64,000 nt of DNA from Bdellovibrionales bacterium (GCA_027317865.1 DAHVQG010000014.1:12645-76644), one strand, 5' to 3'; numbered from the stretch's first letter, positions 4,156-13,919 are shown. Translations and numbers: made by a program. Notes: generated by a model from the letters alone, not told the origin.

Positions 4156-6219
4156 CTAATTGGCCCGAGTTTTAGAGTGGGTACTCTTTGCCATTGCTTC
4201 TTTTTTCGTTTTCAAAGCTTTTGCGTGCATAACGGGCGTGCCGTATCCGTCAAGTACAGACATTTCCGCCGCGATATTTAGCGCCTCTCTTATGTCAGGA
4301 CGTTTGAGGTAATATTTTCGTCTCAATATTTGATCTTGAGCGTAGGTTTTACCCTCTTCTTTTTTCTCCTGTTTGTCGACGGTGACTTGAGCTTTTAAGA
4401 ACTGGCTCACAACAATTTCGCCGTTCTTTTCTTTTTTCTCTTTAGCAATTTCGCGGCGAATTTTCGCAAATGCTTTGCTGTGATCGACGCGAATTTCACT
4501 GTCACGTCGCAGACGCGCGATGAGCCGCTTCGTCACGCGCTTCCAATGCCCTGGTTGCCCCGGTGGAACATACGCCTCAGCCGATAGAAATGGCGCGACC
4601 CTGTTACGAGGTAATGAATACGTCAGGTCTTTTTCAGCGATGTGTTCGTACGGTAAAACGCTTGGCAAAACAATTTGCGACGGAACACCGTAATGTTGCG
4701 TCGACTCACCGCCTGGAATAAAAAACATACCGATTGTCGTTTTTATCGCGCCCAATCCTGGGAGCGGCTCGACCGCCTGCACTGTTCCTTTACCGAACGT
4801 GTGACCGGTACCGACAATTACGGCACGATCGTAGTCTTTAAGAGTACCTGAAACAATTTCCGCAGCCGACGCGGTGTAAGGGCTTGTGAGAATCACCAAA
4901 GGTCCGGCGTAATTTACGAGCGGATCCGTGTCGGCAAGAACAATATCCGTGCTCGAATCGCGGCTTGACTGCTTAACGACATTACCTTCGCGAAAAAATT
5001 CGCCGGCAATTTCAACTGCGTCTTCGAGCGAGCCCCCGCCATCTTGGGATAGATCGAGGAGCATTCCGTCGACATGATGTTGGTTAGCTTGGTATAAAAG
5101 TTTTCGCATGTCCGACGCCGCTGAACGTCCACCTGGTCGGCCGTCCGAATAAAAACTAGGCAAATTAATAAGAGCAATCTTCACTTTTTTGCCGTGCCAA
5201 ACTTTATTTATATAGTTGATCGACGCGGCTTCGTCTTTAATTGTGATCTTTTCGCGCGTCAGGGCGATCGTAAATTTTTTGTTTCCCTTTGGAGTTTTTC
5301 GCAAAATCCGCAAACGCACAACCGTGCCTTTTTTACCGCGGATCTGTTCAACCACTTTCTCAAGGTCTTCGTTCACGACGTTTTTAATCGGGCCGGTCTT
5401 GCCTTGTCCAACTCCTATGATCATATCTTTCGGTCGTAAAAGACCCGACTTCGCAGCAGAACCGCCCGGCAGAAGTTGTTCAATAACCGTAAACCCGTCT
5501 TTGGAACTCAACGTTGCGCCTATCCCTTGAAGAGATAAACGAATTTCAATTTCAAACTCTTGAAACTGCTCTTGAGACCAGTATGTTGAGTGCGGATCAA
5601 GCGCCTTTGCGAATGAATTCAAATATAAGGTAAAAATATCATCTGGTTTGTTGTCGTTGATGTGCATCATCGCGCGTTTATAGTTTTGCAGTACCTTTTC
5701 GCGCGCCCTCGGCTCTTTCACGCCGCTTGCGATATAGTTCGCCACTTGCAATTGAATATATTTTCGAAGATACGCGTCGACACCGGCTTCAGTTGGCGGA
5801 TATCTACGCTTCTTGGGGTCGGTTATGATTTTTGTCCATGGTTCAAATTTAAAATTCTTATTCTTTAAAACACTTTCAGCGTATTCAATGTTGTGCTTCA
5901 TCCGCTTTTTAAACAGGGAGTAGACGTCAAGAATCGGTTGGCAGTTATTTTGATTAATCTTTTTAAAAACGCCTTTCATCATCACATGGATTTTTCTGAC
6001 ATCAGCTTGGTTGAAGTACATTTTCGAACCATCGAGGTGGTTGATGTACATATGAATCGTACGCCGTTCGAGTTCCGGGGTCAGGTGACTGAATATAAGG
6101 TGTTTTTGCAAAAAGCGCATCTCGATCGGTGCGATATATTGACAAGTAAGCTTCAACCCATAAGACGGTAACGAGACAAGCGAGCTGAAGATTAAAACAA
6201 ACAACGTGATGCGATTCAT
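4156..6219 (-). CDS. prc: Carboxy-terminal processing (tail-specific) protease, S41A, with PDZ domain
   Basis: Signal peptide; LDPHSTY, GIGATL, IRGKKGTVVRL, ASAAEIVSG (catalytic Ser), TFGKGTVQ (catalytic Lys). Confidence 0.9.
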   Translation of the reverse strand: MNRITLFVLIFSSLVSLPSYGLKLTCQYIAPIEMRFLQKHLIFSHLTPELERRTIHMYINHLDGSKMYFNQADVRKIHVMMKGVFKKINQNNCQPILDVYSLFKKRMKHNIEYAESVLKNKNFKFEPWTKIITDPKKRRYPPTEAGVDAYLRKYIQLQVANYIASGVKEPRAREKVLQNYKRAMMHINDNKPDDIFTLYLNSFAKALDPHSTYWSQEQFQEFEIEIRLSLQGIGATLSSKDGFTVIEQLLPGGSAAKSGLLRPKDMIIGVGQGKTGPIKNVVNEDLEKVVEQIRGKKGTVVRLRILRKTPKGNKKFTIALTREKITIKDEAASINYINKVWHGKKVKIALINLPSFYSDGRPGGRSAASDMRKLLYQANQHHVDGMLLDLSQDGGGSLEDAVEIAGEFFREGNVVKQSSRDSSTDIVLADTDPLVNYAGPLVILTSPYTASAAEIVSGTLKDYDRAVIVGTGHTFGKGTVQAVEPLPGLGAIKTTIGMFFIPGGESTQHYGVPSQIVLPSVLPYEHIAEKDLTYSLPRNRVAPFLSAEAYVPPGQPGHWKRVTKRLIARLRRDSEIRVDHSKAFAKIRREIAKEKKEKNGEIVVSQFLKAQVTVDKQEKKEEGKTYAQDQILRRKYYLKRPDIREALNIAAEMSVLDGYGTPVMHAKALKTKKEAMAKSTHSKTRAN

Positions 6220-6282
6220 GTTGGCACCTTCTATTTAAAGATTGGACTTCGTTAAGATAGCAACGACCATAGTAGCAACGAT

Positions 6283-7194
6283 TTAATCGAAAAGCGAGAG
6301 TTGATGGAACTGCGCCGAAACAACCTTGTCTTCCGTTCTGCCGTCAAACACTTCGCGTCTTAAAAACTGGCCTTTGTGCGTGTCGAACACGAAAAATGAG
6401 TTTTTCGGATAATTACGTTTCAGTCGCGTCATCTCTTCAATAATAAGCTCAATATTTTTCGGATCGTCATCTGACATGCCGAAGCGATGATGCTCGTTGT
6501 ATCCGTACTGTTCAAATGCCCGTTCCACAGATGCGCGAATTGCCGTTTGCTTCATTTCAGCTACAGGAGCGTCAAAACTTTTGCCCAGTAATGTACGCGT
6601 TTCGGGACAATTGACCGGGTAAAGCCCCAAATAATTCGGCTCATGCGGAATATGCCCCTCCGACACAAGTAAACGCATCCCGTCTTTCATCGTTTTAGGT
6701 TTATGACCGCGTGCTGTAATTAATGACAACGGTCGCCGGTTAAATACCGCATGGTAGAAACAGTTCCAGCTTGGCCCCTTCCAGTTGTAATCGGGCAATC
6801 CAAGCGCGTGCATAAGATCTTCTATAAACGGTTGGCGTTTACCGGCGAGCCGCTCAATAAGCGATAAATCACGATCACGAAAATTGCGAAAACTTCCATT
6901 CTCGTCATCGAATCGAACTTCGTAGTCTTTATAAGGGCCCGACTTACCTATCGTGCCACTATGTTCACCAAATTCGCGTGTCGAAAGTTTCTTTTCTTCA
7001 CCCGATTGCCTGTGAAAAATAAACGTCGGCGTCGACAATATCGCGATATTGTCGTCGAAATCGAAGAAGTAGAAACTACGCCCGCCTCGCTTAAAATTTC
7101 GGTCGTCCTCTTGGCTCCGTTGAATACCTAATTCGAGCTGCGTCGATTTCGAATTTTGCGCCTTTTCGACCGATTCACGTAACCGTTTAAACAA
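6283..7194 (-). CDS. HAD-superfamily phosphatase-like protein with C-terminal QLSLF motif
   Basis: FYFFDFDDNI (DxD), LITARGH (motif II), Lys in AEMK, GMSDDD (motif IV); probable TTG start 1 nt after the topA stop, with GGGGG SD. Confidence 0.7.
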   Translation of the reverse strand: MFKRLRESVEKAQNSKSTQLELGIQRSQEDDRNFKRGGRSFYFFDFDDNIAILSTPTFIFHRQSGEEKKLSTREFGEHSGTIGKSGPYKDYEVRFDDENGSFRNFRDRDLSLIERLAGKRQPFIEDLMHALGLPDYNWKGPSWNCFYHAVFNRRPLSLITARGHKPKTMKDGMRLLVSEGHIPHEPNYLGLYPVNCPETRTLLGKSFDAPVAEMKQTAIRASVERAFEQYGYNEHHRFGMSDDDPKNIELIIEEMTRLKRNYPKNSFFVFDTHKGQFLRREVFDGRTEDKVVSAQFHQLSLFD

Positions 7195-7195
7195 C

Positions 7196-9826
7196 TCAGC
7201 CCCCAGTGACCGCCCGTTTCGGCGCGTTGGAGGACCGCTTTGCACCTGCTCGCCGGCTGTTGCTTTTTGCACTAGACCCTTGTGCTTCTTTTTTAGCCAA
7301 TAGCTCAAGGGCCACTTTCATTGTCACATCTTCGGGTTTCAAACCCTCCGGCAGCGATACATTAGTGCTCCCACATTTTATATACGGCCCGTATTTACCG
7401 TTTAAAACTTGCACGACGGCTTTTGTTTCAGGATGAGGTCCCAACTCTTTGAGCGGAGTTGCGCGCCCGCGCCCGCGTTTAGGCTGCGCGAACAATTCAA
7501 GTGCGCGTTTGAGGCTAACCGAAAATAAATCTTCGCCTTTCGGTATCGACCGATAATCGCCATCGCAAACCACGTAAGGGCCGAATCGCCCCAAACCCAA
7601 TTTAATTTCCTTTTTTAGCTGAGGATGCATCCCTAATTTCTTCGGCAAACTCAAAAGCCAAAGCGCTTGGTCAAGCGTGACATTTTCAGGTTCGAGCCCG
7701 GCAGGCAAAGCCATTCGCTTGGGCTTCTTCTCTTTGTCCTTTTCGTCACCATCGCCCAACTGGACGTAAGGTCCATAACGCCCCGATAAAACATATACGG
7801 GCTGTTTGGTGACAGGGTCTTTGCCGATTGAATCGGCGCCGTTAATTTTTTGATCGATCAGTTTGTTGGCGATTTCGGCCGTCATATCACCCGGAAATTG
7901 CGTTTCTGGTATCGACGCGCAAATCTCTTCGCCTTTCTTTTCGCGGCGACAAACATACGCGCCGTAGCGTCCGACTCGAAAATCAAAATTATTTAATCCT
8001 TCGAGTTTCACACCACGCGACTCGTCGGCGTCGATTTCTTTTTCTTTTTTTTCGACCTGTTTTCTTAAGCCCTTTTCACCGAAATAAACCGATTGCAAAT
8101 ACTTTTCGTGATCGAGATCACCGCTTGCGATGTCGTCGAGCGCCTGCTCCATCGCGGAGGTAAACCCTGTCTCAACATATTCGGGCAAATTTTGACTTAG
8201 AAGCTTGCTAACAACCAGCGCGGTAAAAGTCGGCACAAGTGCATTGCCAACTTTTTTTACGTAACCGCGATCCTGAACGGTGCCAATAATCGAAGCATAA
8301 GTTGACGGTCGGCCGATCCCCTCGCGCTCCAACGTCTGCACAAGCGACGCCTCAGTATAGCGCGCAGGTGGTTTTGTTTCATGCTGATTGATTTGGAGTG
8401 AATTAACTTTGAGTTTGTCGCCTTTTTGTAGTTTGGGCAATCGAACTTCGTTTGTTTCAAGTGCCGCGTCGGGATCATCGCTCCCCTCGACGTAAGCTTT
8501 TAGAAAACCCGCAAATTCAATTGTCATACCCGACGCTGCAAACATCGCATCGCCCGCCTCAATCTTGACCGTCATCTGTTTATGTTCGGAGTTGACCATT
8601 TGGCAGGCCATGGTGCGCTTCCAAATCAAATCGTAAAGCTTTAACTCGACGCCGGTCAGGCCGGCATCTTCCGGTAAAATAAATTGCGTGCCCGCAGGGC
8701 GAATCGCTTCGTGCGCTTCTTGAGCCCCTTTGACTTTTTTCTTACCGTAGTCACGAAATTGCGCAGGTAAATAATTCTTTCCGTACAATTTCACAATCTC
8801 TTCGCGCGCGGCACGAATTGCTTGTTCGGATAAAAACATCGAATCAGTTCTCATGTAAGTGATCATACCGCGTTCGTACAAGCGCTGCGCCACCTGCATC
8901 GTTTCACGCGAACCCAAACCCAATTTGCGGTTTGCTTCTTGCTGGAGCGTTGAGGTAATAAACGGCGGTGCCGGTTTGCGCGAAACCGGTTTTTCTTCAA
9001 CATCAGTTACAACCCAAGTTGTTTTTTCAATTTCTTTTTTGATTCGTTGCGATTGATTCTCGTCAAGATGCAACACGCCGCCGGCGGCCGTTTTGTTCAA
9101 CTTTCCGGTTGCACTATCAAAATCTTTGCCCGTTGCAATGCGCTGATTTTTGAAGCTTACAATATGCGATTGAAATTTACTTTTATCTTTTTCATTTTCT
9201 GCCGTGAGATCCCAATATTCAGAACGCTTAAAGCGCAATCTCTCATGCTCGCGTTCGGCTACCAGTCGAACTGCGACGGATTGAACGCGGCCCGCAGAAA
9301 GACCGTAGGCGACCTTCTTCCACAAAAGCGGTGAAATAGTGTAACCGACGAGACGGTCGAGAATGCGGCGGGCCTCTTGTGCACGCACAAGATTCATGTC
9401 GATATCGCGAAACTCTTTAAGTGCCGCAAGTATCGCTTCTTTCGTGATTTCATTAAACACCATCCGCTTAACGGTCACACGCGGGTTAAGAACGTTAACC
9501 AAGTGCCAGCTGATGCTTTCACCTTCGCGGTCTTCGTCAGTTGCGAGAATCACCTCCGACGCCTCATCAACTTTTCGCTTCAAGTCGCTCACAATTTTAG
9601 TTTTGTTTTTCGGGATGCAATAGAGCGGGGCAAAATGTTTGTCGACGTTGACCCCTAAATTAGCCCAAGGTTCTTTTTTAAATTTTTCAGGAATATCTTT
9701 TGCCGACTGTGGTAAATCCCGCACGTGCCCCATGCATGACTCCACAACGAAATCACGGCCAAGAAACTTTCGGATCGTTTTGGCTTTCGTGGGCGACTCC
9801 ACAATAACTAGCTTTTTCTTTGTCAT
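7196..9826 (-). CDS. topA: DNA topoisomerase I, with Topo_C repeats rather than zinc ribbons
   Basis: IVESPTKAK, ATDEDREGE, SAGRVQS, ITYMRTDS (catalytic Tyr), AHEAIRP; repeated GRYGPYV/GRFGPYV units; basic tail. Confidence 0.97.
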   Translation of the reverse strand: MTKKKLVIVESPTKAKTIRKFLGRDFVVESCMGHVRDLPQSAKDIPEKFKKEPWANLGVNVDKHFAPLYCIPKNKTKIVSDLKRKVDEASEVILATDEDREGESISWHLVNVLNPRVTVKRMVFNEITKEAILAALKEFRDIDMNLVRAQEARRILDRLVGYTISPLLWKKVAYGLSAGRVQSVAVRLVAEREHERLRFKRSEYWDLTAENEKDKSKFQSHIVSFKNQRIATGKDFDSATGKLNKTAAGGVLHLDENQSQRIKKEIEKTTWVVTDVEEKPVSRKPAPPFITSTLQQEANRKLGLGSRETMQVAQRLYERGMITYMRTDSMFLSEQAIRAAREEIVKLYGKNYLPAQFRDYGKKKVKGAQEAHEAIRPAGTQFILPEDAGLTGVELKLYDLIWKRTMACQMVNSEHKQMTVKIEAGDAMFAASGMTIEFAGFLKAYVEGSDDPDAALETNEVRLPKLQKGDKLKVNSLQINQHETKPPARYTEASLVQTLEREGIGRPSTYASIIGTVQDRGYVKKVGNALVPTFTALVVSKLLSQNLPEYVETGFTSAMEQALDDIASGDLDHEKYLQSVYFGEKGLRKQVEKKEKEIDADESRGVKLEGLNNFDFRVGRYGAYVCRREKKGEEICASIPETQFPGDMTAEIANKLIDQKINGADSIGKDPVTKQPVYVLSGRYGPYVQLGDGDEKDKEKKPKRMALPAGLEPENVTLDQALWLLSLPKKLGMHPQLKKEIKLGLGRFGPYVVCDGDYRSIPKGEDLFSVSLKRALELFAQPKRGRGRATPLKELGPHPETKAVVQVLNGKYGPYIKCGSTNVSLPEGLKPEDVTMKVALELLAKKEAQGSSAKSNSRRAGAKRSSNAPKRAVTGG

Positions 9827-9888
9827 TTTGTGTATACTGCCATTCAACTTATGATTTATCCATGCTCACAGTTAACTCAGCGCTCCAC

Positions 9889-10698
9889 ATGAAATCACTG
9901 CGTGAATTTGTAAATCCCGGTCTTCGTTTTATTTTTACCGATATTGACGGTACTTTGACCGAGCAAGGCCGGTTGACGTCGAGCGCTTACCAAGCCCTTT
10001 GGCGATTGCACGATCACGGTCTAAAAGTTGTGCCGGTCACTGGACGTCCCGCCGGCTGGTGTGAACTCATCGCTCGACAATGGCCGGTCACCGGTGTGAT
10101 TGGCGAAAACGGCGGCTTTTATTTTCGCTACGAAGATCTCAACGCAGGCGACGGTACAACAGGAGTGATGCGACGTCATTATTTTTACAATGCTTCAGAA
10201 CGCGCCGATCACAACCGCCGCCTTGATAAAATTCGCACTGAAATTTTGGCTCGCGTGCCAGGCGCTGCCGTTGCAAGCGATCAGTTTTGCCGCCAAATGG
10301 ATCTTGCCATCGACTATTGCGAAGACGTCGTGCGTCTACCGCCGACCGATGTCGACCGGATCGTTAAAATTTTTACGGATCATGGTGCCAACGCCAAGGT
10401 GAGCTCGATTCATGTCAACGGATGGTTTGGCGAATACGATAAACTCACGATGTGTCATGTTTTCTTGGAGCGCGAGTTTGGAATGAAAATCTCTGACGCC
10501 CAAACCTCCGTCGCTTTTGTCGGCGACTCACCCAACGACGAACCCATGTTTGCCTTTTTTAAAAATTCGTTTGCGGTCGCAAATGTCAAAGATTTCGTGG
10601 GAACTATGAAATCACTCCCCGAATATGTTGCCGATCAAAACGGCGGCTCTGGTTTTGCCGAAGTCGTTGAGCGAATACTTGCGACCACTCAACGCTGA
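9889..10698 (+). CDS. HAD-IIB family hydrolase
   Basis: FTDIDGTLT, VTGR, ENGG, GDSPNDEPMF. Confidence 0.88.
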   Translation: MKSLREFVNPGLRFIFTDIDGTLTEQGRLTSSAYQALWRLHDHGLKVVPVTGRPAGWCELIARQWPVTGVIGENGGFYFRYEDLNAGDGTTGVMRRHYFYNASERADHNRRLDKIRTEILARVPGAAVASDQFCRQMDLAIDYCEDVVRLPPTDVDRIVKIFTDHGANAKVSSIHVNGWFGEYDKLTMCHVFLEREFGMKISDAQTSVAFVGDSPNDEPMFAFFKNSFAVANVKDFVGTMKSLPEYVADQNGGSGFAEVVERILATTQR

Positions 10699-10712: not shown

Positions 10713-11486
10713 TTACTTAATCCAGTGAAAGAAGCGGGACCAGCGGATGCTCATCGGATCGCATCCCATATGGATAATGGGGATTGTTTTACCGCAACTC
10801 AGCCACACAAACGTCGCGCGGCCAATTACATTATCAATGGGCGCGTAACCCCAATAGCGCGAATCCGCCGAATTGTCGCGATGGTCACCCATCATGAAGA
10901 GATAGCCTTTGGGCACAATCGCCGGGCCGAAATTACGATCGTACATATCGGTTCGGTGCAAGATCGCGTGCGGAGTTTTGCCCAGTTCTTCGATGAGCTC
11001 GACGTGCTCGGCACGGGCATTTTCAAGATCGCGGTTTCTAATCATATCGAGCCAGTGGTGATTCGGATCTGGAATATCTTGGATTTGTTTTCCGTTAATA
11101 TATAAAACGTCATCGTGATAATAAATTTTATCGCCCGGAACACCGATTACGCGTTTAATCAGCATAATGCCATGCTTACCTTTTTCGGGGTCACGAAAAA
11201 CAACAACTGACCCTCTCGTCGGCGTGCCAAATCGCACGATCCAATGATCGGTAAATGGCCAGCGTATCCCGTAAATTAATTTATTAACGAAAATGTGATC
11301 GTTAATCAAAAGCGTCGGCAACATGCTACCGGAGGGGATCACATAAGCTTCAAAAAACGCCCAACGAATTGTGAGCGCAATCAAAACAGCTCCGACCAAT
11401 CCCCAAATACTATCTTTACGCTTACTGCTGGATTTTTTGTTCGACGCTTTAGGGGGTTCTTTTTGTGGCTCGTCTTGATTTGTCAA
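10713..11486 (-). CDS. lepB: Signal peptidase I
   Basis: IPSGSMLPTL, IKRVIGVPGD, GDHRDNSADSRYWG. Confidence 0.95.
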   Translation of the reverse strand: MTNQDEPQKEPPKASNKKSSSKRKDSIWGLVGAVLIALTIRWAFFEAYVIPSGSMLPTLLINDHIFVNKLIYGIRWPFTDHWIVRFGTPTRGSVVVFRDPEKGKHGIMLIKRVIGVPGDKIYYHDDVLYINGKQIQDIPDPNHHWLDMIRNRDLENARAEHVELIEELGKTPHAILHRTDMYDRNFGPAIVPKGYLFMMGDHRDNSADSRYWGYAPIDNVIGRATFVWLSCGKTIPIIHMGCDPMSIRWSRFFHWIK

Positions 11487-11519: not shown

Positions 11520-13919
11520 CTATTTTTTAAACCCTTGCAGAGCCGCAAACGGATTGTTAAATGGTTGACGCGCACTTCGTTCACGCCCGCCTCGCTCACG
11601 CGCCTCTCCCTCGCGCGGCATCTTCTGATTTTTGCCGGGACGGTGCCGGTCGCTGGGCCTATTTCTTTGCCCATTACGCTCACGCGCCACTTGACCTTGT
11701 GACCGTTTTTCGCTGGGAGGCAAACGCTGGGCAGCCGGCCGTTCCTCAAGTTTCATCGTCAGCGAAATTTGGTTCTTTTCCGTGTCTACGCCAAGAACTT
11801 TAACTGTAACCGCTTCGCCCGGATTTACAACTGTACGCGGATCATCAACAAAATCATAGGTGAGCTGCGAAATATGAACAAGACCGTCTTGATGAACGCC
11901 GATATCAACAAACGCGCCGAAGTTCGTTACGTTAGTAACAAGGCCGGGGCAAATCATTCCCTCTTTTAAATCTTTGATTTCGTGAATATCTTCACGAAAT
12001 TGAAATACTTTAAACGGATCGCGCGGGTCGCGTCCGGGTTTAGCGAGTTCCGTTAAGATATCGTCAAATGTAAATTCGCCGATTAACTTCACGTATTTTT
12101 CGCGTAATTTTTTAAGCGGTTCGAGATTACCGCCGATGGCTTGGGAGCTCGTCAGCCCGGCTTCACTCAGCATATCCCGCACCGCCATATAGCGCTCAGG
12201 GTGAATGCCGGTTTGATCGAGCACCACTTTACCGTTTGCAATACGCAAAAAGCCCGCGGCTTGTTCAAAAACTTTCGACGAAAAATGTGCCACTTTCATC
12301 AAATCGCCGCGTTCTTGAAACAACCCCTTCTCGTTTCGATGCTGAACAATGTTTTTCGCAATCGCCGGACCAATCCCCGCGACATACTGAAGGAGCGAAT
12401 GTGAAGCGGTATTGACGTCTACGCCGACTTGGTTCACGCACGATTCCACAACCGCGTGCAAGGAATTTTTCAAATCGGCTGGGTTGACGTCGTGCTGATA
12501 CTGGCCGACTCCGATTGATTTAGGGTCAACTTTCACAAGCTCGGATAACGGATCTTGTAACCGCCGGGCTATCGAAATCGCGCCACGAACCGTTAAATCA
12601 AGATCCGGAAACTCTTCTCGCGCGACATCGCTTGCCGAATAAACGCTTGCGCCCGACTCGTTCACCATGATTACCGGCACTTCTTTTTTAATCTCAACCA
12701 AAATATCACGGATGAATTTTTCGGTCTCGCGCCCGGCCGTTCCGTTACCTACAGCAACGGCATCAATCTGAATCTGCGTAAGCGTCTCAGCCAGAAGTTT
12801 CTTTGCCTTTTCTTTGGCACCCTCACCAAGCGTTTGTAAAACCGTATGAGTTAAAAACCGGCCGCCCCGATCAATCAATGCGATTTTACATCCCGTACGA
12901 AGACCAGGGTCGACCCCTAAAACGACTTTTGGCCCGAAGGGGCTTGCCATCAAAACACGCCGCACGTTTTCGGCAAAAACGGCAATCGCATCGGCGTCGG
13001 CTTTATCTTTCAATACGCTATGGAGTTCATTTGTCACAGACGGAATCACGTGAACCGTTAGCGCAATTTTCGCGGCCTCTTTCAAAAACGAAGCGGCTTG
13101 CGAATCCGTTTTGATTACCGCTTCGGTTTCAAACGACTGCAGCAATACATCGTCCGTCCCCTCGACTGTGACTTTGAGTTCGCCCTCTTGCCAGCCGCGA
13201 CGAAGCGCCAAGTACCGGTGCGAAGCTTTGCGCATTTGCAAGCTTTTTACCGACTCCTTAAACTCCGCGTACATTGTGTATTTCGAATTCGGCTTAAATT
13301 CTTTAGTTTTCGACGTTATGATGCGGCCGTTTGTGAAGTAATCATCTTTGACCTTCGCGCGCAAAATGGGGTTATTGGCGAGTCGCTCCACAATAATATG
13401 CTGAGCCCCGCGCAGTACCTCTTCGTATGTTGCGTACTGTGCTGCTGGATTAATAAATTCTTTTGCCTTTACCTCAAGACTTGTGGGGTCTTGAATTTCG
13501 CCGTGCCCCAACTGCCATATCCAATCCGCTAATGGACCAATTCCGGCGTCTTGGGCGAGTTTTGCTTTTGTTTTTTTCTTTTTCTTGTAAGGCCGGTAGA
13601 GCTCCTCGATCTCGTGTAAATCAAACGATTGCTCGATTTGCTTTTTGAGGTCGTCAGAAAGGCTGCCTTGTTTGCGAATTTCATCGAGTACAAAGGCTTT
13701 GCGCTTTACGATTTCTTGCCAAGTCTCAAATGACTGTAAAATATTGCGAATTGCGACTTCATCTAAATTACCGGTGCGTTCTTTTCGGTAACGCGCCATA
13801 AAAGGGACCGTGGCCCCTTGGTTGTGTAAGTCGAGAACCGCTTCGATCGATTTTACCGCAACCGTCTGGATTTTTGATTTCGAATATTCAATAAACTGCG
13901 GATCGACAGTCAAACTCAT
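11520..13919 (-). CDS. tex: Tex-family RNA-binding transcriptional accessory protein (YqgF/HhH/S1)
   Basis: TVPFMARYRKE, GVDPGLRTGCK, VNESGASVYSAS, IGVGQYQHD, S1 domain FGAFVDIGVHQDGLVHIS. Confidence 0.95.
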   Translation of the reverse strand: MSLTVDPQFIEYSKSKIQTVAVKSIEAVLDLHNQGATVPFMARYRKERTGNLDEVAIRNILQSFETWQEIVKRKAFVLDEIRKQGSLSDDLKKQIEQSFDLHEIEELYRPYKKKKKTKAKLAQDAGIGPLADWIWQLGHGEIQDPTSLEVKAKEFINPAAQYATYEEVLRGAQHIIVERLANNPILRAKVKDDYFTNGRIITSKTKEFKPNSKYTMYAEFKESVKSLQMRKASHRYLALRRGWQEGELKVTVEGTDDVLLQSFETEAVIKTDSQAASFLKEAAKIALTVHVIPSVTNELHSVLKDKADADAIAVFAENVRRVLMASPFGPKVVLGVDPGLRTGCKIALIDRGGRFLTHTVLQTLGEGAKEKAKKLLAETLTQIQIDAVAVGNGTAGRETEKFIRDILVEIKKEVPVIMVNESGASVYSASDVAREEFPDLDLTVRGAISIARRLQDPLSELVKVDPKSIGVGQYQHDVNPADLKNSLHAVVESCVNQVGVDVNTASHSLLQYVAGIGPAIAKNIVQHRNEKGLFQERGDLMKVAHFSSKVFEQAAGFLRIANGKVVLDQTGIHPERYMAVRDMLSEAGLTSSQAIGGNLEPLKKLREKYVKLIGEFTFDDILTELAKPGRDPRDPFKVFQFREDIHEIKDLKEGMICPGLVTNVTNFGAFVDIGVHQDGLVHISQLTYDFVDDPRTVVNPGEAVTVKVLGVDTEKNQISLTMKLEERPAAQRLPPSEKRSQGQVARERNGQRNRPSDRHRPGKNQKMPREGEARERGGRERSARQPFNNPFAALQGFKK

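Follow-up and report, generated by a model that had tools for sequence, protein, structure and literature searches.

A HAD-fold phosphatase encoded next to topA in a Bdellovibrionales bacterium carries candidate sliding-clamp-binding motifs at both ends

The locus lies in a window of 64,000 nucleotides, the whole stretch of DNA that was analysed, from a Bdellovibrionales bacterium (GCA_027317865.1 DAHVQG010000014.1:12645-76644). Read along the minus strand, topA is followed by a gene for a 303-residue HAD-fold phosphatase and then by a gene for a tail-specific protease. The features, in window coordinates, are as follows.

7196..9826, minus strand: topA, DNA topoisomerase I, 876 aa (Pfam Toprim, Topoisom_bac and four Toprim_C_rpt)
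7192..7198, minus strand: topA/phosphatase junction, by direct reading (TGA 7198-7196, one G at 7195, TTG 7194-7192)
6283..7194, minus strand: HAD-fold phosphatase gene, 303 aa (TTG start, TAA stop 6285-6283)
7140-7123, minus strand: N-terminal QLELGI, residues 19-24, candidate second clamp-binding motif of the hexapeptide type
7062-7048, minus strand: HAD motif I, D45-F-D-D-N49, at the end of model strand 40-45
6717-6706, minus strand: HAD motif II, T160-A-R-G163, at the end of model strand 155-160
6552-6550, minus strand: HAD motif III, K215, inside model helix 211-230
6474-6463, minus strand: HAD motif IV, S241-D-D-D244 within GMSDDD, at the end of model strand 237-242
6303-6286, minus strand: C-terminal putative clamp-binding motif Q298-L-S-L-F302 plus the terminal D303, from conservation and predicted docking
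4156..6219, minus strand: S41 tail-specific protease gene, the downstream neighbour (Pfam Peptidase_S41, TSP_NTD and PDZ)

An earlier, sequence-only reading had placed the probable TTG start 1 nt past the topA stop, a position that direct reading of the sequence confirms. The frame is open further upstream (TTG 7308, GTG 7272, GTG 7245) and the public gene call P0001 (320 aa) starts at GTG 7245 instead; the TTG at 7194 is therefore a plausible but unproven start. It leaves 18 residues ahead of the QLEL motif, compared with 16 in the homologue consensus. The GGGGG run at 7204-7200 could be the ribosome-binding site of the phosphatase gene. At the junction, no terminator or promoter signal exceeded what shuffled sequence would give, and the two genes are probably co-transcribed with topA upstream.

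Within the order of the source organism, the orthologue has topA on its upstream side at 17 of 19 loci from relatives; among the 72 genome-contig loci with enough upstream sequence the figure is 68 (adjacent in 54 of the 68). Synteny with topA thus holds within the order and breaks down in the other families of the phylum, where topA was near the phosphatase gene in 0 of 34 loci although both motifs were still present. With adjacency limited to one order, the suggestion that the enzyme acts with Topo I was not borne out. In family f22, dnaE1 lies divergently within 0.8-4.2 kb in 18 of 23 loci; outside two lineages, the neighbourhood of the phosphatase is uninformative about DNA.

The AlphaFold (AF2) model of the protein (pLDDT 91.8, pTM 0.86) has a HAD fold with a Rossmann-like alpha/beta core, and when it was compared by VIA-align with 48,161 chains, nearly all of the 50 matches listed were HAD-fold (top Z 10.1). 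All four HAD motifs named earlier (DFDDN, TARG, K and SDDD) are at the sites claimed and are close to fully invariant. In an alignment of 82 sequences, D45, F46, D47, N49, T160, A161, R162, G163 and K215 do not vary, nor do G239, S241, D242, D243 and D244 of motif IV; D48 of motif I is conserved in at least 90%. Motif I deviates in having Asn (N49) at the position where HADs usually have Thr or Val. Distant relatives keep FD[FWIL]DDN (motif I) and G[FM]SDDD (motif IV).

Homologues number 1794 at E<=1e-3; the homologue counts given below were taken over the 120 listed (274-363 aa). The protein matched no Pfam family at E<=0.1 and no NCBIfam family at E<=1, in line with its earlier description as an uncharacterised HAD-fold phosphatase. 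The best match of its profile among PDB sequences (E 0.097) is not a HAD, none of 26 scanned distant relatives matched a HAD sequence model, and Foldseek found nothing in the PDB at E<=1e-3. As no curated HAD sequence model matches, membership follows from the fold and the motifs, from which we consider the protein very probably a HAD hydrolase. By analogy with other HADs, D45 would be the nucleophile and D47 the acid/base, with the DDD of motif IV holding Mg2+, in an active phosphomonoesterase from a branch without a family model.

The chain ends in HQLSLFD, as read earlier, with Q298-F302 at 6303-6289. In the available text of a 2024 clamp review, the clamp-binding motif is Q-aliphatic-x-[L/M]-[F/L] or Q-aliphatic-x-[L/M]-x-[F/L] (PMC11139829), and QLSLF fits the pentapeptide definition exactly. 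The strict form Q[LM]xLF occurs in 100 of the 120 homologues listed, looser variants in 16 and neither in 4. Genome loci give a similar picture: 77 of 80 have a C-terminal motif (strict in 41, looser in 36), and among the 34 from the phylum's other families, 23 have the strict motif and the remainder near variants. The C-terminal motif is thus kept across the homologues and also in other families of Bdellovibrionota.

The motif stands out from a tail of low model confidence (pLDDT 63, then 44). Entropy is 0-0.6 bits at its four fixed positions compared with 2.2-3.7 bits in the 14 preceding residues, and 2.7 bits at its position 3; conserved and variable positions of the tail coincide exactly with the clamp-motif pattern. 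Of 116 homologues, 92 either terminate right after the motif or continue with D/E, in agreement with the acidic or free-carboxylate flank that the available review text describes for clamp ligands (PMC11139829). Residues lie beyond the motif in 72 of the 116 (up to 11), so that it is more than an exposed hydrophobic chain end. The genome has 2293 ORFs of 150 aa or longer, and only 2 of them have QLxLF within the last 12 residues (expected 0.20, from the within-ORF rate of QLxLF); the other ORF is a DEDDh DnaQ-like exonuclease.

The second motif noted earlier, QLELGI near the N-terminus, is also present and conserved: of 119 homologues whose core is recognisable, 109 have Q[LM]x[LF]x[LIVF], and most of the 10 without it are truncated gene calls. 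QLELGI fits the hexapeptide definition except for Ile at the last position, where orthologues have QLDLGF, QLELGF or QLELPL. Other families of the phylum have variants that include QLDLGF, QLEFDF and QVALPI, and the phylum-wide form, Q-[LMV]-x-[LF]-x-[FILV], is close to the hexapeptide definition as the review text at hand gives it (PMC11139829).

We co-folded phosphatase residues 270-303 (the C-terminal 34 residues only) with the alignment of the organism's own DnaN, together with three controls. The tail gave ipSAE values of 0.67, 0.67 and 0.65 compared with 0.01 for the best control; 58 of 80 solved complexes attain the ipSAE mark, as do 2 of 110 mismatched pairs, counts that apply only roughly because own alignments were used. 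The runs had at least 75% of contacts in common, with a partner pLDDT of 47-52. Phosphatase residues 295-302 contact DnaN residues 176, 178-181, 248, 253, 326, 350, 366 and 368-372. Their E. coli equivalents, with numbering transferred through the conserved strings TDGHRL and MPMR, are T172, G174-L177, P242, V247, N320, V344, V360 and M362-R365, residues of clamp subsites I and II in the available review text (PMC11139829). In the predicted pose, Q298 points toward subsite II and L301/F302 occupy subsite I, as is canonical for this pocket.

The co-fold score may owe something to the model's memory of clamp-peptide complexes, of which many have been solved, in which case it would show likeness and not binding. 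The pose, like the fold, the catalytic motifs and the conservation, is computed, and binding is what we infer. The evidence supports QLSLF as a motif that would act like a genuine clamp-binding one, a conserved island in a low-confidence tail that docks in the model, and we think it likely that the phosphatase binds the clamp.

Known β-clamp clients likewise have terminal motifs (E. coli Pol II QLGLF, Pol IV QLVLGL, the C-terminus of Pol III alpha, the N-terminal QLSLPL of Hda), and the phosphatase has in common with them a short motif in a disordered end of the chain, with either nothing or an acidic residue after it. Hda and Pol IV have hexapeptides similar to the N-terminal one here, as described in the review text at hand (PMC11139829). 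Whereas those clients are polymerases, ligases, mismatch-repair proteins, AAA+ regulators or nucleases, the catalytic domain here is a phosphatase, and one protein of 303 aa has a motif at both ends. Literature searches found no clamp-bound phosphatase, and 'phosphatase', 'haloacid' and 'topoisomerase' have 0 occurrences each in the available text of the 2024 review (PMC11139829).

The three highest-ranking VIA-align matches are the T4 Pnkp phosphatase (5uj0_B, Z 10.1; rmsd 2.8 over 132 aligned residues, in the range 37-274 of the phosphatase), Pnkp1 (4xrp_A, Z 9.5) and T4 PNK (1ltq, Z 9.2), with generic HADs next at Z 7-8.8, so that the Pnkp entries are ahead by no more than about 1.3 Z. Profile alignment against T4 PseT (hhalign) detected no similarity, with a probability of 1.7% over 19 columns outside the motifs. 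The phosphatase would clear 3'-phosphate ends in the same manner as, and shares its DxD nucleophile and acid/base chemistry with, T4 PNK/phosphatase (PseT; 5uj0, 1ltq) and with Pnkp1 of the Pnkp1/Rnl/Hen1 RNA-repair complex (4xrp), and differs from them in having a cap-like insert (~72-151), Asn for Thr in motif I and no 5'-kinase domain, the whole chain being a HAD domain with two short tails. We know of no clamp motifs in the T4 PseT/Pnkp1 enzymes. HAD 5'-nucleotidases (T5-type deoxynucleoside-5'-monophosphatase, cN-II PF05761, cN-III) likewise combine a HAD core with a cap-like insert; no Pfam or NCBIfam nucleotidase model (PF05761, PF05822, PF06941 and relatives) matched the phosphatase, and to our knowledge none of these enzymes has a clamp motif. 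A further structural match (BFVD, E 9.6e-5) is the RNA-repair HAD domain of a Pandoravirus protein named 'Swiss Army Knife', which is a eukaryotic or giant-virus, multidomain type of protein; the domain has a DxDD-type motif I, the Pfam HAD_SAK models do not match the phosphatase, and we know of no clamp motif in it.

As to substrate, fusions to PLD domains occur among the distant core-only relatives; the best matches of these domains, which are weak, are to the nuclease NucT and the DISARM protein DrmC. With the T4 Pnkp-type top fold matches, these fusions make a 3'-phosphate on a DNA end the best guess, and given clamp binding we regard a DNA-end substrate as about evenly balanced. The genome also encodes an Xth-like Exo_endo_phos protein (107 bits), a possible other source of 3'-phosphatase activity. 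The main rival to a DNA end is a nucleotide: the enzyme would be tethered to the clamp and act on dNMPs/NMPs, or on damaged or non-canonical nucleotides near the replisome, for example dephosphorylating nucleotides that proofreading sets free, which would keep them out of recycling. The phosphatase is ~100 residues longer than the capless T4 Pnkp phosphatase domain, and the region between motifs I and II (~72-151) looks, in the model, like a C1-type cap with numerous conserved aromatic residues (W138, W143, F146, Y147, H148); C1-type caps in HADs usually accompany small-molecule substrates. Fusions to cytidine/dCMP deaminase in the distant relative P0137 and in the phage structural match A0A6J5KPZ7_2 (BFVD, E 4.8e-6) point toward nucleotides, as would weak matches to phage deoxynucleoside-5'-monophosphatases (BFVD, E ~0.07) and the presence of guaA, a cN-II-type 5'-nucleotidase or PhoX close by in single loci; the structural match in the PDB to cN-IIIB (7zeh_B) is weak (E 0.079). 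However, a diffusible substrate would leave little gain from tethering, the top fold matches are polynucleotide phosphatases with no Pfam nucleotidase model matching, and the clamp partners tabulated in the review text at hand all act on DNA (PMC11139829). No β-clamp client is known to use a free small molecule as substrate. We consider the nucleotide reading unlikely on this evidence.

Less likely still is an ordinary soluble metabolic HAD phosphatase whose QL motifs serve oligomerisation, a degron or another partner, with no clamp binding in the cell. Short hydrophobic motifs are capable of several functions, the possible debt of the co-fold score to solved complexes would suit such a reading, and within the order the N-terminal motif has E/D at position 3 almost without exception, which does not look like a free 'x'. 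One candidate for such a partner is the PDZ domain of the S41 protease encoded next door, whose gene is downstream in 18 of 19 relatives' loci and in 70 of 71 loci. Against this, the S41 protein has a signal-peptide-like N-terminus that the phosphatase lacks, and outside the order the adjacency is lost (1 of 34 loci) while both motifs are kept; we do not think the protease part of the mechanism and treat its gene as context. The residues that extend past the C-terminal motif, the exact clamp pattern of the tail and the DnaQ-like exonuclease as sole other owner of such a tail also speak for the clamp. We find it improbable, more so than either of these, that the protein is a clamp-bound protein phosphatase acting on a replisome or repair protein, or a regulator that fills both pockets of a clamp and so governs the access of partners to clamps left on DNA. 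A small protein with two motifs of the clamp type would block both pockets of the ring, some HADs are protein phosphatases, and HAD phosphotyrosine phosphatase effectors of the Lem4/Ceg4 type are among the fold matches (Z 8.0-8.1). Those matches are level with dozens of generic HADs, however, the neighbourhoods show no evident kinase or phosphoprotein partner, and every catalytic residue is invariant, which makes a pure clamp blocker unlikely.

If the tail is a sliding-clamp docking peptide, the enzyme probably works at replicating or repaired DNA, and it is probably a hitherto undescribed phosphate-removing enzyme there. In the mechanism that we propose, the disordered C-terminal QLSLF(D) tether would plug into the canonical DnaN pocket between clamp domains II and III, and the N-terminal QLELGI, just ahead of the folded domain, would probably bind the second protomer's pocket. 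This arrangement would hold the catalytic domain on the polymerase face of the ring, above DNA leaving the clamp. Its most likely task there would be to strip a phosphate (in all likelihood a 3'-phosphate) that blocks a DNA end, wherever a clamp marks a primer end, a nick or a gap, and thereby to open the terminus to polymerase or ligase. Simultaneous use of the two motifs we infer, and the substrate likewise; the whole chain, a HAD enzyme tethered to DnaN by two motifs that clears 3'-phosphate from DNA ends, is accordingly offered as a tentative model that falls somewhat short of even.

The phosphatase with both motifs is also found in other families of the Bdellovibrionota, the phylum of the predatory Bdellovibrio. 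That these bacteria have a dedicated replisome end-cleaning HAD 3'-phosphatase gripping both pockets of one DnaN ring is a more doubtful proposition; if true, the enzyme, recruited by the clamp, would be a bacterial equivalent of eukaryotic PNKP's phosphatase half. There could be a link to predatory life, in which many chromosomes are replicated while the predator's own nucleases shred the DNA of the prey, so that termini blocked by 3'-phosphate may be unusually common.

The 303-aa phosphatase is encoded between topA and a protease gene, on the same strand as both:

7196..9826 (-), topA, topoisomerase I, 876 aa, with Pfam domains Toprim, Topoisom_bac and four Toprim_C_rpt
7198-7196 (-), topA stop codon TGA, separated by one base from the TTG at 7194-7192
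7194 to 6283 (-), phosphatase ORF, 303 aa, TTG-started, by direct reading of the sequence
4156-6219 (-), S41 tail-specific protease, with TSP_NTD, PDZ and Peptidase_S41 domains and a signal-peptide-like N-terminus

The sequence-only reading had placed the phosphatase start at a TTG 1 nt past the topA stop, and this is the spacing found. The same open frame also holds upstream starts at TTG 7308, GTG 7272 and GTG 7245, and one public gene call, made for a 99%-identical protein, uses the last of these. With TTG 7194, the leader ahead of the first conserved motif is 18 residues long, compared with 16 in the consensus of the homologues, and TTG 7194 is the likely start. The two genes are coupled in the sense of spacing only. 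A promoter and terminator scan of 5900-10100 gave three promoter-like sites (4.7 expected) and six terminator-like sites (6.4 expected), none above shuffle expectation and so no signal either way. Divergent from topA lies a HAD-IIB (Cof-type) hydrolase (9862-10698 (+); TIGR01484, 65.8 bits; Pfam Hydrolase_3), a second HAD adjoining topA that is unrelated in sequence to the phosphatase at 6283-7194. It is followed by ORFs that by eye are signal peptidase I-like (10713-11486 (-), 257 aa) and a Tex-like S1-domain protein (11520-13919 (-), 799 aa).

Searches of the window protein against Pfam and NCBIfam gave no matches, and the best hit in a profile search of PDB sequences (E = 0.097) was not a HAD. 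A word-indexed search at E ≤ 1e-3 returned 1794 proteins; the top 120 are 56-99% identical to the phosphatase and 274-363 aa long, none with a name. In an exhaustive profile search the family came to 711 clusters at 50% identity. The AlphaFold2 model, computed on an alignment of 82 sequences, had a pLDDT of 91.8 and a pTM of 0.86, with residues 11-20 and the last dozen less confident. Foldseek of this model against the PDB gave no match at E ≤ 1e-3; HAD relatives surfaced by VIA-align only, in a wide search of 48,161 representative chains whose matches were almost all HAD-fold. The top match was the T4 Pnkp 3'-phosphatase (5uj0_B, Z 10.1, rmsd 2.8 Å over 132 residues), followed by 4xrp_A, the Pnkp1 phosphatase from an RNA-repair complex (Z 9.5), and by T4 PNK (1ltq, Z 9.2), with generic HADs at Z 8.8 and below. 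Membership of the PNKP family itself was rejected, because comparing the family profile with T4 PseT in hhalign gave a probability of 1.7%.

The four HAD motifs picked out in the sequence-only reading sit at the expected strand ends and in the expected helix of the model, and their key residues are borne out by the alignment: all 82 sequences have D45, D47, N49, T160, A161, R162, G163, K215, S241, D242, D243 and D244, and at least 90% have D48. Motif I deviates in having Asn where Thr or Val is usual in HADs. Distant relatives also keep FD[FWIL]DDN and G[FM]SDDD. As modelled, the phosphatase is thus a HAD-fold enzyme that no family model recognizes. In the ESM Atlas, only the unnamed Bdellovibrionota clusters to which it belongs came up, together with a lead of 0.90 to phage DUF2608 (PF11019), and the cluster members of 10 distant relatives, from Elusimicrobiota and Myxococcota metagenome-assembled genomes, are named 'hypothetical protein' or 'cytidine deaminase'.

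The C-terminal QLSLF, earlier proposed to bind the beta sliding clamp (DnaN), proved to be both conserved in homologues and rare in the genome. Among the best 120 homologues, 100 have Q[LM]xLF within their last 30 residues and 16 have looser C-terminal variants (QLSFF, QLSLL, QIPLF and others); in the remaining 4 the motif is unrecognizable, three being near misses and one apparently frameshifted. The motif forms the very C-terminus in 44/116 homologues and is followed by 1-11 residues in the others, with the chain end or Asp/Glu coming directly after it in 92/116. When the sequences were anchored on the motif, entropy was 0-0.6 bits at the four fixed positions (that at the Gln being set by the search pattern itself), 2.7 bits at position 3 and 2.2-3.7 bits at the 14 preceding positions. 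A 2024 review defines clamp-binding motifs as Q-aliphatic-x-[L/M]-[F/L], in which any residue may stand third and the flanks are acidic or carboxylate (PMC11139829), and the pattern of the phosphatase tail matches this definition at the level of sequence.

Among the 2293 ORFs of 150 aa or longer in the genome, just two have a QLxLF within the final 12 residues (0.20 expected). The other is a 204-aa DEDDh (RNase_T/DnaQ-like) exonuclease ending in KQLGLFDL and located outside the window (contig C1 of the window's genome, G000:C1:49377-49991 (-)). Being the sole other long ORF with a C-terminal QLxLF, it is probably a second clamp-tethered enzyme, maybe an alternative proofreader. Internal matches were seen in an 898-aa PD-(D/E)XK nuclease (G000:C11:11965-14661; QLGLF at residue 281), which could be a clamp client, and in a 677-aa BatD-like protein (G000:C4:28515-30548; QLNLF at 179), where the match is probably due to chance.

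The sequence-only reading had also suggested co-folding with DnaN. The DnaN of the window's genome is homologous over its full length to clamps of known structure (E. coli 1mmi, for instance, at E = 5.8e-51), and it was folded together with phosphatase residues 270-303 using our own alignment of 28 DnaN sequences from this genome and its relatives. The three runs gave ipSAE values of 0.67, 0.67 and 0.65, compared with 0.00, 0.00 and 0.01 for three controls; in the calibration of the method this mark is reached by 58/80 solved complexes and 2/110 mismatched pairs, counts that apply only approximately here because our own alignments were used. The runs share at least 75% of contacts, with a partner pLDDT of 47-52. 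Confident contacts involve phosphatase residues 295-302 and DnaN residues 176, 178-181, 248, 253, 281, 284, 286, 324, 326, 350, 352, 366 and 368-372. When DnaN is aligned through its conserved strings TDGHRL (176-181) and MPMR (368-371) and compared with the subsite residue lists in the available text of the review (PMC11139829), these contacts include the counterparts of E. coli T172, G174, H175, R176, L177, P242, V247, V360 and M362 in subsite I and H175, N320, V344, M362, P363, M364 and R365 in subsite II. The predicted pose is canonical, with Gln298 toward subsite II and Leu301/Phe302 in subsite I. The prediction shows that, to the model, the phosphatase tail resembles a clamp ligand, which is a likeness and not binding, and the pass may reflect memory because many clamp-peptide complexes have already been solved.

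The second motif noticed earlier, QLELGI, occupies residues 19-24 directly ahead of the folded domain, and it too is retained. The hexapeptide Q[LM]x[LF]x[LIVF] is found in 109/119 homologues with a recognizable core, the 10 misses being mostly gene calls that begin inside the motif. Within the window's order, the Bdellovibrionales, the third residue is Glu or Asp in almost every case, which by itself would cast doubt on a clamp role for this N-terminal motif; other families of the phylum, however, have QLDLGF, QLELGF, QLEFDF, QLSFNF, QMSFKF, QVALPI or QVSLAI at the same place, giving a phylum-wide pattern of Q-[LMV]-x-[LF]-x-[FILV]. This is close in sequence to the hexapeptide clamp motifs QLVLGL of Pol IV and QLSLPL of Hda reported in the available text of the review (PMC11139829), making QLELGI a candidate clamp motif by sequence.

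Named records of the family come from Bdellovibrionales, Bdellovibrio (including B. bacteriovorus strains) and Pseudobdellovibrionaceae, and cultured B. bacteriovorus strains are represented by loci L075, L084 and L091. Within the order, 27/41 genomes (the window's own included) have a match at E ≤ 1e-3, of which 22 are near full-length at E ≤ 1e-100; the window's family accounts for matches in 12/24 genomes. Many of the genomes that lack a match are small or carry a divergent DnaN. Across the phylum, Bdellovibrionota, 140/301 genomes match at E ≤ 1e-5, with near-full-length copies in 34/36, 19/20 and 39/67 genomes of the families f10, f16 and f22, respectively.

Within the order, the arrangement topA - phosphatase - S41 protease hardly varies. 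At the loci of relatives, topA is upstream in 17/19 and the S41 protease downstream in 18/19, the remaining locus stopping at a contig edge. On genome contigs with enough flank, topA is adjacent in 54/72 loci, upstream within 4 kb in 14/72 more and absent in 4/72, and the protease is downstream in 70/71 loci of the order. Among 34 loci outside the order (23 from f22, 7 from f16, and one each from f14, f25, f34 and f35), the 4-5 kb flanks contain topA in 0/34 and the S41 protease in 1/34. Both terminal motifs are kept in these loci, the C-terminal one strictly in 23/34 and as a near variant in 11/34. Motif conservation thus extends through the phylum, whereas topA synteny holds within the order and is lost outside it. 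Because the motifs remain where topA does not, the clamp motifs are old and phylum-wide, and the topA neighbourhood is a gene-order trait of more recent date, confined to one order. This restriction argues against a specific partnership with topoisomerase I and gives no support to the earlier suggestion that the phosphatase acts with that enzyme; the topA link belongs to the gene order of one lineage and is peripheral to the finding. Separately, we rejected the idea that the tail is a ligand of the PDZ domain in the adjacent S41 protease: the protease looks exported, the adjacency is lost outside the order, and many tails continue past the motif.

In f22, dnaE1 lies 0.8-4.2 kb from the phosphatase gene, divergently oriented, in 18/23 loci, in copies 40-50% identical to the 1184-codon Pol III alpha of the window's genome (neighbour annotation for the first 14 loci covered the 41/96 extracted ORFs that flank the gene). 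That two unrelated neighbourhoods, topA and dnaE1, both involve replication or topology genes is suggestive, although either could go back to one inherited event and no such neighbours were seen in the remaining families examined. A conserved small ORF of 143-213 aa with a hydrophobic N-terminus also occurs in f22 (L136:3342-3803, L137:4902-5522, L139:4938-5576, L147:3555-4046 and L138:1433-1861), lying between dnaE1 and the phosphatase orthologue in 4/5 of these loci. We rejected it as a partner: no Pfam family matches it, it appears to be secreted, and the window's genome encodes no homologue. That genome encodes two Pol III alpha homologues, at L055/L172 (G000:C33:206716-210012) and L171 (G000:C6). 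The C33 protein, of 1098 aa, has a weak PHP match and an internal QLNLF at residue 914; the 1184-codon homologue on C6 is the better candidate for DnaE1, and simple patterns found no clamp motif in it.

What the phosphatase acts on is the weak point. We rank first, at somewhat less than even confidence, a clamp-positioned enzyme that would remove 3'-phosphates from DNA ends. A DNA terminus is favoured because the clamp partners in the review's table, in its available text, all act on DNA (PMC11139829), because the three best structural matches are polynucleotide 3'-phosphatases, and because 4 of 26 distant core-only relatives scanned (from 150 listed) are fused to PLD domains (P0153, P0204, P0251 and P0270). 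The best, sub-threshold NCBIfam match of the PLD part in P0153 and P0251 is the nuclease NucT, with DISARM DrmC as a further sub-threshold match in P0251. The HAD core in these four and in P0137 is without QL motifs, and proteins of 937-985 aa with this core also occur within Bdellovibrionota genomes. The thought that the organism lacks other 3'-phosphatases was dropped: an Xth-like Exo_endo_phos protein is present, so there is no clear gap for the phosphatase to fill, and AP_endonuc_2/Nfo was not found in the 99% complete genome.

Ranked second, and in our view unlikely, is a clamp-tethered nucleotidase. It would account for the roughly 100 residues beyond the capless T4 domain, which are C1-cap-like with many conserved aromatics, and it is in keeping with weak matches to phage dNMP phosphatases, with the fusion of P0137 to an E. 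coli-type cytidine deaminase and with one phage structural match fused to a cytidine/dCMP deaminase; the PLD fusions and the three best folds favour a DNA end. We consider it somewhat less probable again that the protein does not bind the clamp at all, and a role as a protein phosphatase or as a blocker of the clamp pocket is the least probable of these readings.

Bacterial sliding-clamp partners are few (polymerases, ligase, mismatch-repair proteins, Hda, the clamp loader and a few recent additions), and that DNA enzymes can carry a clamp motif at one terminus is textbook knowledge. The novelty here lies in the class of enzyme, in the presence of two such motifs on a protein of 303 aa, and in the family. 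The word phosphatase is absent from the available text of the 2024 beta-clamp review (PMC11139829). Literature listings and abstracts on Bdellovibrio, DnaN, the sliding clamp, HAD and nucleotidase gave no clamp-bound HAD or other phosphatase, although supplementary tables may hold one; none of 15 papers in one listing had both a HAD and a clamp term, and in the two abstracts of another that mention phosphatase the word refers to the PHP domain of polymerases.

Since the family is present in cultured B. bacteriovorus, the question of clamp binding is directly testable. A 2019 study of replication dynamics in this species reportedly mentions DnaN 28 times, so tools for following the clamp may already exist. 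If the binding is real, phosphate removal would be a new activity that the clamp brings to DNA, the phosphatase would be an uncommon natural example of a single small protein bearing clamp motifs at both termini, and at least 1794 'hypothetical proteins' without a family model would gain a function.
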